A stretch of 64,000 nt of DNA, taken from assembly GCA_965221955.1 (NCBI GenBank), contig CBDCTA010000029.1, positions 512,001 to 576,000 on the forward strand, written 5' to 3'. The notes under the pieces are model-generated. The model was not told the DNA's origin. It saw only the letters and a program-made list of their open reading frames with translations, and made no database searches. Within the stretch, counting starts at the first letter, position 1. Every line of letters starts with the position of its first letter. The stretch is from Gammaproteobacteria bacterium. Its GTDB lineage: Bacteria; Pseudomonadota; Gammaproteobacteria; UBA4575. Shown in pieces: positions 36,348 through 48,038 of this stretch. The position numbers and the translations under genes were made by a program.

Positions 36348-36473
36348 AAAGAAGTCCTGATTTAAATTGATACTTCGTTAAAAATTATTCTCAATATCGT
36401 TCGTGTATGTATTAATACACGTCACTCATTTCGAAAATTTTTGTCTCGTCTCAAACTAAATCAAAACTTCTTT
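36348..36473 (+). repeat. Palindromic TIR element, copy A (fills secF/suhB gap)
   Basis: Ends AAAGAAGTCCTGATTTA / TAAATCAAAACTTCTTT (15/17 complementary); central GTGTAT..ATACAC hairpin; core 36376-36454 closely matches 40965-41041. Confidence 0.85.
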
Positions 36474-37260
36474 AGGTTTTGTTATTTAAGGTTTGTAAAA
36501 TCAAACGAAACAATTTCGTATTTGCTGCCACTATATTTCCTGTTTCTAGGTGTGAATGACCGCCTTGCGTGTCCCCCACTAATCCACCCGCTTCTTGCAC
36601 AATTAAACAGCCTGCCGCAACGTCCCAAGTGTTAAGGCCGTATTCCCAAAATCCATCAACACGTCCTGCAGCCACATAAGCAAGATCAAGTGCTGCGGAC
36701 CCGGCACGGCGTATTCCTGAAGTGTGCAACATCAATTCTTTGAGTGATGCTAAGTAACGGTCAATATTTTGATTTTCTCGAAATGGAAATCCAGTGGCGA
36801 GTAATGCGCCCTCAAAACTCGTTAATTTTGAAACTCTGATTTTACGATCATTTAATGAAGCGCCGTTACCGCGCCCTGCACAAAATAATTCATCTTTGAA
36901 GGGGTCATAAATTACTGCAACTTCTAGTCGATCTTTATGTTTCAGAGCAATTGAAACAGAATAGTGTGGAAAACCACGTAAAAAATTAGTTGTGCCATCA
37001 AGTGGGTCGATAATCCATTGGAATTCATCATTATTGCCACTGCAACGATTACCACTTTCCTCGGCGAGAATGCTGTGTTGTGGGTATGCGCGGTGAATAA
37101 CATTAATAATTTCTTGTTCCGCTTTGAAATCGACTTCGCTGACAAAGTCATTTTTTTCTTTCGTTTGAATAGATAAAGAATGCACGCGTGACATATTGCG
37201 GAAAATAATTTTTCCCGCTTCACGAGCGGCTTCAATTGCAATGTTCAGAGTAGCTTGCAT
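36472..37260 (-). CDS. suhB: Inositol monophosphatase / Nus factor SuhB
   Basis: WIIDPLDGTTNF, RR.GSAALDLAYVA.GR.DG, WDVAAG; start placed at MQATLNIA (37260), the usual SuhB N-terminus. Confidence 0.95.
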   Translation of the reverse strand: MQATLNIAIEAAREAGKIIFRNMSRVHSLSIQTKEKNDFVSEVDFKAEQEIINVIHRAYPQHSILAEESGNRCSGNNDEFQWIIDPLDGTTNFLRGFPHYSVSIALKHKDRLEVAVIYDPFKDELFCAGRGNGASLNDRKIRVSKLTSFEGALLATGFPFRENQNIDRYLASLKELMLHTSGIRRAGSAALDLAYVAAGRVDGFWEYGLNTWDVAAGCLIVQEAGGLVGDTQGGHSHLETGNIVAANTKLFRLILQTLNNKT

Positions 37261-37298
37261 ATAAACAGATATTATGAAATTGATCGCGCAGCATAGCA

Positions 37299-37315
37299 TT
37301 GGCAAGTAAATTGCG
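37299..37315 (+). promoter_or_regulatory. Putative sigma-54 (-24/-12) promoter
   Basis: TTGGCAAGTAAATTGCG: GG-N10-GC with TGGCA and TTGC; predicted +1 near 37326. Confidence 0.5.
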
Positions 37316-37322
37316 TATACAC

Positions 37323-37420
37323 TTATGTACATGGAAGTACTGTATGCCGGTTTTGCACGACTGCATGGATGCAGGAGATAGAACGAAGCAGGATGCTAGA
37401 GTCGAGGAGCAAAAACCGGC
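37323..37420 (+). repeat. Nested GGA-hairpin cassette (copy F); candidate Csr/Rsm-type small RNA or leader
   Basis: Outer 49-bp unit 43/49 identical to reverse complement of 47943-47991; 48-bp inner unit inserted in its CAGGAG loop; five GGA motifs. Confidence 0.75.
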
Positions 37421-37468
37421 GTTTTAAAAAAAGTATCTCTTCTAGCTAATTAGTAGCTACCCATAGTC

Positions 37469-38215
37469 GTGAATAAACCATATAAAATTAAAATCGTCTT
37501 GGTCGAACCATCACACCCTGGAAATATTGGGGCAGCTGCACGTGCAGCTAAGACAATGTGCATTGAAAATTTGGTGTTAGTGAAGCCAGCAGAATTTCCT
37601 AGTGGCCAAGCGCGAGCGAGAGCAACAGGTGCTTTAGATGTGCTAGAGCGTGCTGAGATATGTGATACGTTAAGTGCAGCAATTGCAGATTGCACTTTTG
37701 TGGTAGGTGCGAGTGCACGTGTTCGTGGATTACAATGTCCTGACATTGCTCCTGATGCATTGGGTGATAAAGTATGGAAAGAAGTAGAGCAGGGGAATGT
37801 AGCAATTGTGTTTGGACGAGAGAGCAGTGGGTTATCAAATGAAGAATTAGATCAATGTCATTTCTTAACAACGATACCTGCAAACTGGGAGTTTAGTTCG
37901 CTCAATATTGCATCCGCTGTGCAAGTGATTTGTTATGAAATCTATAAGGCCTATCTAAATAAAAGTAATACTAAAAATGTTTCCGATATATCTGGTGATA
38001 CGGATGAATTAGCAACCGCTGAAGAAGTTGAACACCTATTGGTACACATGCAGCAAGTATTGCAAGAGATCGAGTTTTTTGATCCTAAACAACCTAAATT
38101 GTTAATGCGCCGCTTACGACAACTTTACTGTCGTGCACGATTGTCGCGTGTAGAAACAAATATCTTGCGCGGCATTCTCAGTGCAACTCAAAAATACAAG
38201 CGTAATGCAGACTAA
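37469..38215 (+). CDS. trmJ: tRNA (C32/U32-2'-O)-methyltransferase TrmJ
   Basis: SHPGNIGAAARA.KTM, FGRE.SGL.NEEL, SSLN; suhB/trmJ/iscR synteny. Confidence 0.93.
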   Translation: MNKPYKIKIVLVEPSHPGNIGAAARAAKTMCIENLVLVKPAEFPSGQARARATGALDVLERAEICDTLSAAIADCTFVVGASARVRGLQCPDIAPDALGDKVWKEVEQGNVAIVFGRESSGLSNEELDQCHFLTTIPANWEFSSLNIASAVQVICYEIYKAYLNKSNTKNVSDISGDTDELATAEEVEHLLVHMQQVLQEIEFFDPKQPKLLMRRLRQLYCRARLSRVETNILRGILSATQKYKRNAD

Positions 38216-38890: not shown

Positions 38891-40115
38891 GTGACAGATG
38901 TAAAACTACCCATCTATTTAGATTACAGTGCGACTACGCCAGTTGATGAGCGAGTGGCACAAGCGATGATGGATTGTTTAACCAAAGAAGGTAACTTCGG
39001 TAACCCCGCATCACGCAGTCATAGCTTTGGTTGGGATGCAGACAAGGCCGTTGAAGAAGCGCGAGCTAATGTTGCGGCACTCATTAATGCTAATCCTAAA
39101 GAAATTATTTGGACCAGTGGTGCAACAGAGTCTGATAATTTAGCCATTAAAGGTGCGGCGCATTTTTATCAAAAAAATGGTAAGCATTTAATCACCTGCA
39201 AAACCGAACATAAGGCAGTTTTAGATACTTGTCGTCAGCTTGAGCGAGAAGGATTTGAGGTTACCTATTTAGAGCCGCGTAATAATGGTTTGATTGATTT
39301 AGAAGATTTAAAAGCTGCAATTCGTGATGACACCATTTTGATTTCGATTATGCATGTGAATAATGAAATCGGAGTGATTCAGGATATTAAAGGCATTGGT
39401 GAAATCACACGCGAACGCAAAATTATTTTTCATGTGGATGCGGCGCAAAGTCCCTGGGAAAGTACCAGTTGATGTGGAAGAAATGAATGTAGATTTAATG
39501 AGCCTATCTGCACATAAAGTATATGGCCCTAAAGGTATTGGAGCTTTATATGTTCGCAGAAAACCACGTGTACGTATTGAAGCGCAGATTCATGGTGGTG
39601 GCCATGAGCGTGGTATGCGTTCTGGTACGTTGGCTACACATCAAATTGTAGGCATGGGCGAAGCATTTCGGATCGCTAAAGAAGAAATGGCTGCAGATAA
39701 CGAACGAATTTTAATGTTGCGCAATCGTTTATTAAATGGCCTTAAAGATATGGAAGAAATCTATATTAATGGTGACCTTGAACAGCGTATTCCGGGTAAC
39801 CTAAATGTTAGTTTTAACTTCGTCGAAGGTGAAAGTTTAATTATGGCGCTGAAAGATATTGCAGTGTCTTCCGGGTCTGCATGTACAAGTGCATCACTTG
39901 AGCCAAGTTATGTATTGCGCGCATTAGGACGAGATGACGAACTTGCACATAGCTCAATTCGCTTCACTATTGGTCGTTTTACAACGGTCGAAGAAGTGGA
40001 TTATGCGATTGAGTTAATTAGAAAAGCGGTGATTAAATTGCGCGATCTTTCACCTCTGTGGGATATGTATAAAGAAGGGATCGATCTTAAATCGATCGAG
40101 TGGGCCGCGCATTAA
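38891..40115 (+). pseudogene. iscS: Cysteine desulfurase IscS split by a +1 frameshift (probably a sequencing error)
   Basis: YLDYSATTP...HVDAAQSP in one frame, [24 protein letters not shown] in the next; removing one C at 39452-39454 gives a 407-aa ORF. Confidence 0.93.
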
Positions 40116-47782: not shown

Positions 47783-48032
47783 AAGAGGCTCTGATTTATT
47801 AATGCAATGGCTGATATTAGGCAAAAAATGTCGACAAATCTGCCAGGAGCAGATTTGGAAAGCTATGCTAGCCAAAGGCCGAGCGCCAGGAAGGTGCGAG
47901 TCAAATAAGCAATATGTATTGATTTATACATTAGCGATTTGATCAGTTTTTGCTACTGCAAAACTGGTATACAGTACTTCCATATACATAAGATCATTTT
48001 TAACAACATATCAGAATAAATCAGAGTTTCTT
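47783..48032 (-). repeat. Composite palindromic element, copy D (inverted copy-E scaffold carrying two inserted cassettes)
   Basis: TIR AAGAGGCTCTGATTTATT / AATAAATCAGAGTTTCTT; arms match reverse complement of copy E; inserts at 47831-47900 and 47943-47991. Confidence 0.85.
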
Positions 48033-48038
48033 CCAATA

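Follow-up and report, generated by a model that had tools for sequence, protein, structure and literature searches.

A GGA-hairpin array beside trmJ in a gammaproteobacterium is probably a composite of nested repeats and not a sigma-54-dependent RNA gene

The 208-nt spacer separating the divergent suhB-like and trmJ-like genes of a gammaproteobacterium from the UBA4575 lineage holds an array of GGA-bearing hairpins, located at 37322-37420 of the 64,000-nt stretch of DNA analysed here and referred to below as the window. This array is probably a composite, non-coding and hairpin-forming repeat, nested by targeted insertion and now decaying, rather than an RNA gene under sigma-54 control. It is also likely that the composite belongs to a superfamily of AYGGAY-loop hairpin elements, one member of which has become lodged beside the control region of trmJ. 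An earlier, sequence-only reading of the window had proposed instead a candidate Csr/Rsm sponge RNA, started by a sigma-54 promoter and assembled from mobile cassettes. The evidence for the modular and mobile nature of the array, and that bearing on its possible transcription and on its possible recognition by CsrA, are presented in turn.

The GGA-hairpin array in the suhB-trmJ spacer

The suhB-like gene, which codes for an inositol monophosphatase, is the divergent neighbour of the array and lies on the minus strand (36472-37260; Pfam Inositol_P, E 5.6e-73). Its true start is the ATG at 37260, the longer ORF that reaches 37332 being an over-call. The trmJ-like gene, coding for a SpoU methyltransferase, is found downstream of the array on the plus strand (37469-38215; Pfam SpoU_methylase, E 2.1e-29), and trmJ orthologues are present in 29 of the 31 genomes searched. 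Besides, the iscS gene of the window (38891-40115) was observed as two overlapping ORFs, 38891-39472 and 39396-40115, which match positions 1-179 and 181-370 of Pfam Aminotran_5, respectively. Either a frameshift, pseudogene formation or a fault of the assembly accounts for this split, the iscR-iscS cluster being otherwise intact.

Every motif from which the sponge had been proposed was found at its place on the plus strand: the TTGGCA-agtaaa-TTGC string (37299-37314), the three hairpins GTAC-ATGGAA-GTAC (37327-37340), CTGC-ATGGAT-GCAG (37361-37374) and AGC-AGGAT-GCT (37387-37397), the CAGGAG (37373-37378) and GAGGAG (37404-37409) strings, and an outer stem in which 37346-37356 pairs with 37409-37420, followed by GTTTT at 37421-37425. 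The count of five GGA motifs in less than 100 nt likewise holds, the 99-nt composite containing five GGA and no TCC, and such a density (at least five GGA) is reached by just 155 of the 54,382 non-overlapping 99-nt segments of the genome, both strands considered. As for the structure, RNA folding is predicted for both strands of the array, at -30.9 kcal/mol (z -2.7) for the plus strand and at -29.3 kcal/mol (z -4.9) for the minus strand. The claim that three of the GGA motifs are exposed in hairpin loops is correct for the hairpins as drawn, but the minimum free energy fold keeps only the first of these hairpins, together with the outer stem.

Three nested modules and their copies in the source genome

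When 37290-37440 was compared by BLAST with its own genome (2.69 Mb in 29 contigs, 38.6% G+C, 96.6% complete), two repeat families were retrieved, an outer one (A+B) and an inner one (C). On the plus strand of the window, module A (37322-37345) is composed of the GTAC-ATGGAA-GTAC hairpin (37327-37340) and its conserved flanks. Module B is a long stem, the left arm of which ends in the loop letters GCA (37346-37357), and the right arm of which occupies 37406-37420, after the loop letters GGAG and before GTTTT. Module C (37358-37405) is a 48-nt mini-insert with two hairpins, the first one at 37361-37374. Its position between GCA and GGAG confirms that a 48-nt insert sits inside a CA^GGAG loop, as had been suggested from the window. 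The empty form of module B (loop GCAGGAGC, without insert) was found in six other copies. In addition, contigs of foreign organisms from public runs break exactly at 37322, 37357 and 37393: some of them match 37322-37357 only and then continue with GGAGCAAAAAC, that is with the empty form, and others match 37357-37393 only.

A profile search of the source genome (nhmmer, E<=1e-3) detects nine copies of the outer unit and 13 of the inner unit, hence about 9-13 copies per module, and the exact 23-nt core of module C is present in six of 11 copies. The window copy of module C is AT-drifted, has a second hairpin of a variant type and differs from the 23-nt core by one mismatch. It is recognised by the profile built across taxa (nhmmer E 4.6e-11) and can be aligned with 64 distinct copies from other taxa. 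Module A, for its part, is found in seven of the 15 genomes of the genus, where the changes in its stem are compensating.

The nesting is not limited to the suhB-trmJ spacer. In the source genome, the inner units always lie within a B-like stem whose sequence varies from copy to copy, and several B(C) composites are in turn hosted by the loop of a palindrome that resembles a terminator. Another A+B(C) composite, whose B stem is different, is located at C22:82504-82602. The terminator-like palindrome that hosts B(C) in its loop is recurrent and has a length of about 33 nt, its arms AAAATGTCCGCTT and AAGCGGACATTTT being separated by a loop of 7 nt; it was seen in many places of the genome, for example at G000:C22:41255-41400 and C17:40248-40400, G000 being the source genome.

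The window contains a second outer unit (A+B), at 47940-47992 (nhmmer E 1.9e-15). That this copy is real and insert-free agrees with the sequence-only reading, although its identity amounts to 43 of 47 aligned bases and not 43 of 49, and it is situated on the minus strand. It lies between rodZ-like and hisS genes, as identified with Pfam, and is antisense to both; as its loop reads GCAGTAGC, there is no GGA in that loop. Right after this unit, a conserved motif of the AAATCAGAGTTTC type covers 47993-48038 and ends just before the hisS start codon. Motifs of this type also precede start codons at other copies, and they may correspond to the end of a larger element or to a shared leader motif.

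At a further locus (G000:C29:282837-283355), a 37-codon ORF is preceded, at a distance of about 200 nt, by a strong sigma-54-type site, TGGCAT-N5-TTGCT, and directly followed by a GGA-hairpin composite made of the same modules, with a clear terminator. The 3' end of a sigma-54 transcript may there contain such an array.

The same site in related genomes

Twelve suhB-trmJ spacers were compared, one of them belonging to a sister genus and the other eleven to the genus itself. Outside the repeat, a block of the window spacer (37289-37320; AGCATA ... AAAT ... CGTATAC) is conserved in the genus, its AGCATA and CGTATAC parts being present in all twelve spacers, with or without repeat. Judging from this conservation, the block probably takes part in the control of suhB and/or trmJ; inspection by eye led to no promoter assignment on either strand. 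The composite is present in four of the twelve spacers, namely those of the source genome, of G005, of G013 and, in a different composition, of G007, and in all four carriers the repeat starts 1-2 nt after the conserved block. The other eight spacers are short and display a clean empty site, and the closest relatives of the source genome are among those without element. Comparing filled with empty sites reveals no target duplication.

On a tree built from two genes (513 columns), the source genome groups with three genomes devoid of the element, and the four carriers require four changes, of which the starred branches force at least three. Such a scattered presence is in line with DNA that is mobile, as had been put forward for the cassettes, or subject to gain and loss. 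Furthermore, the G005 and G013 copies align over their full length with the window copy and have lost most of the GGAs and several stems, which we take to mean that a GGA array is not under selection at the suhB-trmJ site.

In this context, it was considered whether the array could act in cis, as a trmJ leader transcribed from the conserved block, whose GGA hairpins would be offered to CsrA, thereby coupling trmJ, and perhaps the downstream isc genes, to the Csr system, or would simply stabilise the mRNA 5' end. The array is indeed GGA-sense to trmJ and begins immediately past the CGTATAC(A/T) block, whose TATAC(A/T) hexamer could, from its letters, be a -10 box: TATACA at 37316-37321 matches the TATAAT consensus at five of six positions, and a start would then fall near the +1 that had been assigned to sigma-54. 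The loops, as we read them, are also close to the CsrA consensus, and csrA exists as a single copy. On the other side, the array stops 49 nt short of the trmJ start and covers no ribosome-binding site, eight of the twelve relatives do without it, the G005 and G013 copies are mostly free of GGA, and a simple scan of 37150-37550 calls neither a sigma-70 promoter nor a terminator. Finally, divergent spacers account for only five of the 45 cross-taxon copies assigned to tandem, convergent or divergent spacers, so that a leader placement is unusual for the family. Altogether, a cis-acting leader appears unlikely.

Module C across the Gammaproteobacteria

Module C is a discrete unit with a wide but patchy distribution in the Gammaproteobacteria. 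Its exact 23-nt core was found in at least 115 stretches in a scan with one genome per species, and the matches listed include records from Pseudomonas, Methylobacter, Endozoicomonas, Cellvibrionaceae, Lysobacterales, Thiomicrorhabdus and Mariprofundaceae. In an even sample of the class, the core at no more than one mismatch is carried by 50 of 401 genomes and 45 of 320 genera, with 1-27 copies per carrier. In the genus, ten of the 15 genomes have it, each of the 15 holding between 0 and 11 copies. A reversed-pattern control gave no match in either the genus or the class search. In a plasmid collection, matches were seen in chromid-size replicons of Pseudoalteromonas and, beyond these, as two partial matches only (37 nt, 97% identical to the initial portion of module C), which lie inside annotated pglX (BREX methyltransferase) genes of Moellerella and Salmonella plasmids.

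The unit is 47-48 nt long in 95 of the 101 copies with a recognisable end. It is preceded by A in 90 of these 101 copies, and the base that follows it is mostly G, often as part of GGA or GG. At one locus, L038, several first halves of module C are followed by several second halves, an order which is expected if the unit inserts midway into another copy. With its discrete length, its sharp ends, this self-nesting and its patchiness in the genus, module C gives substance to the part of the sequence-only reading that spoke of tiny cassettes inserted into one another.

The two hairpins are well supported by covariation. In an alignment of 65 distinct copies, standard pairs occupy 90% of the two-hairpin cells, and eight of the 12 pairs vary on both sides (37 cells), which none of 500 shuffles matches; for the first hairpin, the profile search brings more compensated variants. 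The GGA of the second-hairpin loop is kept in 64 of the 65 distinct copies and the adjacent letters vary, this loop reading AGGA, AUGGA or AGGGA in other copies and CAGGAU in the window copy, whose first loop is AUGGAU. In the first loop, departures are commonest at the letters immediately before and after GGA, and the most variable letter of the core, in the genus and class searches alike, is the N of A-N-GGA, a position at which the CsrA consensus tolerates any base. Among the stem mismatches, G-T outnumbers A-C by four to one, figures that are too sparse to separate RNA from DNA.

The sequences on either side of module C tend to pair with each other, at -14.3 kcal/mol on average vs -11.9 kcal/mol for mismatched flanks (p 4e-5), and 13 of 99 flank pairs fall below the 5th percentile of the control. 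A perfect flanking stem of at least five pairs is present in 9 of 100 copies only, so that the targeting of hairpin loops is no more than a tendency. The statement that module C is always found within inverted repeats was consequently rejected as too strong, given these few perfect runs and the partial nature of the duplex-energy tendency. Read on the strand of the unit, the flanks contain 253 GGA vs 175 TCC, the corresponding numbers in far controls being 1310 and 1321.

Orientation relative to genes and replication

The position of 118 cross-taxon copies relative to genes was recorded on maps made of crude GC3-filtered ORFs, with a Pfam check for the tandem cases only (80 flanking ORFs). Between tandem genes, 24 copies are sense and 18 antisense (binomial p 0.44), 20 copies lie between convergent genes and five between divergent ones, and the rest are found inside called ORFs (16) or at locus edges (35). 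When both neighbours are confirmed by Pfam, a hand count gives 17 sense and 13 antisense copies, and the tandem cases of the source genome, both repeat families taken together, comprise seven sense and five antisense. That convergent spacers outnumber divergent ones (20 vs 5, p 0.004) is what extragenic repeats usually show. With regard to GC skew, the GGA strand coincides with the G-rich one in 41 of 100 loci, hence no replication-strand bias. A genome-wide scan of GGA-loop hairpin clusters had pointed to co-orientation with genes in 11 of 11 cases; this lead was abandoned, many of the clusters being ribosome-binding sites or lying in convergent spacers.

The strand bias of the copies had been proposed as a way to tell a CsrA-titrating RNA from a DNA-level recognition loop. 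The copies face both ways, which is the result that had been tied to a role of GGA in the DNA.

This even orientation bears directly on the view that the units are primarily Csr/Rsm-binding RNA modules, transcribed by read-through or from promoters of their own, and that their mobility is secondary. Such a view agrees with the invariance of GGA in both loops next to variable neighbours, with the extreme conservation across genera in the face of no known transposase and with the published proposals of AYGGAY loops as CsrA sites and of multi-hairpin variants as possible sponges. It would also agree with the four-to-one ratio of G-T over A-C stem mismatches, which are too few to weigh. Nevertheless, the units show no preference for one orientation relative to genes, and their antisense copies expose UCC instead of GGA. 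We thus regard this possibility as doubtful, and the same low probability is given to its widest form, in which module C and its sister modules would be pan-gammaproteobacterial mobile hairpin cassettes with true CsrA/Rsm sites in their loops. If this were true, insertion into GGA loops would build multivalent CsrA-binding RNAs and scatter CsrA sites in leaders and 3' ends, and the spread of a selfish element would be tied to the load on a global regulator. In that case, recognition by CsrA, and not a private transposase, would explain the near-identity of module C across more than 40 genera.

The proposed sigma-54 start and sponge gene

The sigma-54 consensus is TGGCAC-N5-TTGCW, with invariant GG and GC. 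The TGGCA-N6-TTGC match of the spacer (37300-37314, plus strand), from which a transcription start near 37326 had been predicted, is interpreted here as overlapping the conserved block by chance. This motif is present four times in the window (1.13 expected) and 61 times in the genome, where 12.8 are expected by composition. Twelve of the genomic matches are outside ORFs, and in eight of these TGGCA is followed by C or T and TTGC by A or T; the site at 37300, which reads TGGCAA-N5-TTGCG, has neither. Moreover, the relatives have TTGAGC, TTGACC or CTGACC at this site, the -24 GG being present in none of the 11. With these atypical flanking letters, the missing GG and the overlap with a block conserved in 12 of 12 spacers, the predicted sigma-54 start is not upheld.

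The recommended verification that csrA and rpoN exist in the genome was positive, a single csrA and an rpoN being both found. The comparison with the Csr/Rsm models of Rfam had the opposite outcome: none is matched at gathering score in the window or at E<=10 in 37000-37700, and the best values in the whole source genome are 24.9 bits vs 57 for RsmY and 12.3 vs 71 for CsrB, with no match for RsmZ. A stand-alone CsrA sponge of about 100 nt, transcribed from a sigma-54 promoter at 37299-37314 and ending at the outer stem and GTTTT, is therefore very improbable: the formal GG-N10-GC match, the co-occurrence of rpoN and csrA, the five GGA per 99 nt and the genomic enrichment of the promoter motif, which suggests that sigma-54 promoters are in use, are outweighed by the promoter evidence just given, a run of only four T after the outer stem and no called terminator, no CsrB, RsmY, RsmZ or TwoAYGGAY match in Rfam, a site that is absent in the closest relatives and not conserved as a locus, the GGA loss in G005 and G013, and the two-way orientation of the same units, which are antisense to genes elsewhere.

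Comparison with known systems

At the level of Rfam, neither the element nor the module C copies of other taxa match any family. In particular, RF01731, the TwoAYGGAY model (family cut-off 43 bits), gives no match at E<=10 in 37000-37700, and carrier loci likewise lack one, be it at gathering score (18 loci) or at E<=1 (nine loci). The best RF01731 matches of the source genome are full-length and sub-threshold (36.2 and 31.3 bits) and are situated elsewhere, at G000:C5:52065-52230 and G000:C29:69046-69208, each of them with two hairpins having AGGA/ATGGAT loops.

The TwoAYGGAY RNA motif (Weinberg et al. 2010, PMC2864571) was proposed as a CsrA-binding RNA by Gardner & Eldai 2015 (PMC4333381). 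According to the preprint of Li et al. 2026 (10.64898/2026.09.22.753630), extended TwoAYGGAY RNAs in Pseudomonadota show extreme copy-number variation and flanking repeats, and both a sponge role and a mobile-element-like expansion are suggested, the link between the two being left unresolved there. The idea of a CsrA sponge related to mobile elements has thus already been proposed in print for a sister family. The elements described here resemble TwoAYGGAY RNAs in their layout of two successive hairpins on a basal stem, module C inside module B, with loops that may be counted as of the A-Y-G-G-A-Y type, and share with them multiple copies, a very uneven copy number and an association with other repeats. 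They differ by a unit of 48 nt vs a model of 168 positions, and by the second loop of the window copy, which is CAGGAU and not AYGGAY.

REP, BIME and REPIN elements, which Bertels and Rainey reportedly treated in 2011, are a second point of comparison. Like REPs and REPINs, the present units are short, extragenic, imperfect and multi-copy palindromes with covarying stems, and like REPs they are enriched between convergent and tandem genes. However, they number about ten copies per genome and not hundreds, a single sequence extends over many genera, in contrast to REPs, which are for the most part lineage-specific, the two hairpins of module C are unlike and in direct order instead of forming an inverted REP pair, and the source genome has no RAYT-type gene (no PF01797). 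GTAG-tagged palindromic repeats and REP dimers inside longer palindromes have also been described (Di Nocera et al. 2013, PMC3733652), and a GTAG precedes the second hairpin of module C.

With CsrB, RsmY, RsmZ and RsmX, the array has in common several GGA that can be drawn in or near loops within about 100 nt and loop letters near the CsrA consensus. It departs from these sponges in having no covariance-model match, no recognisable promoter or terminator and no conserved locus, and in being made of dispersed repeats that face both ways. Lastly, MITEs and palindrome-associated elements derived from IS200/IS605 (see also PMC6006769) are comparable with the present units, which are non-coding, multi-copy and polymorphic for presence or absence, have a hairpin close to either end, leave the target unduplicated and show empty sites that are clean. 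The long terminal inverted repeats and the target-site duplication expected of a MITE are missing, the window copy having only the 5-nt CGACT/AGTCG. The target is here merely A^G with a preference for GGA, there is no replication-strand bias, and no parent element was found, which sets the units apart from both classes.

In the literature, no published paper was found for the exact 18-nt string of the module C core; variants resembling module C may appear in the TwoAYGGAY supplements. None was found that joins CsrA, REP elements and GGA, and the combination of RsmA and MITE gave nothing relevant.

A possible mechanism for the nested repeats

If the array is a composite of nested repeats, the GGAs of the loops, together with the target, would be recognised by the machinery that copies or inserts the units, and a unit carrying its own target motif would generate strand-coherent GGA arrays as a by-product. 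Module C lands between A and G, often in CA^GGA or GA^GG and also within its own copies, and host-specific inverted repeats flank it above chance. The process may be a single-strand cut-and-paste guided by hairpins, of the type known from IS200/IS605 elements or REP transposases, a proposal that fits the missing target duplication, the hairpins near both ends and the clean loss. No Y1 transposase was detected in the source genome (no PF01797 match, at 96.6% completeness), so its copies may be relics, and 12 Y1-transposase loci from five carrier genomes have no module-C hairpins at their flanks that would designate a parent element. Yet relics should drift, and the six exact cores out of 11 indicate that something still selects or copies module C. 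Counting against a reading as repeats only, the near-identity over 45 genera also fits a very conserved host factor such as CsrA. At the suhB-trmJ site itself, if the TATAC(A/T) hexamer were a -10 box, the trmJ mRNA would begin with the composite, read in the GGA sense, and the composite could then lend stability to the leader or be bound by CsrA incidentally.

Implications

A GGA array that resembles a CsrA sponge being better explained as repeat DNA, motif-based Csr/Rsm calls should be checked against repeat families and for orientation. Module C is unusual among bacterial repeats in that it is near-identical over dozens of genera with compensated hairpins, and nests in other palindromes and in itself with no transposase in sight. 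The point of interest lies in the agent that copies these units and in the partner that their GGA loops serve, be it a protein such as CsrA or the insertion machinery. In view of the published TwoAYGGAY work, module C offers a small and tractable entry to the question of whether AYGGAY-loop elements are regulators, parasites or both.
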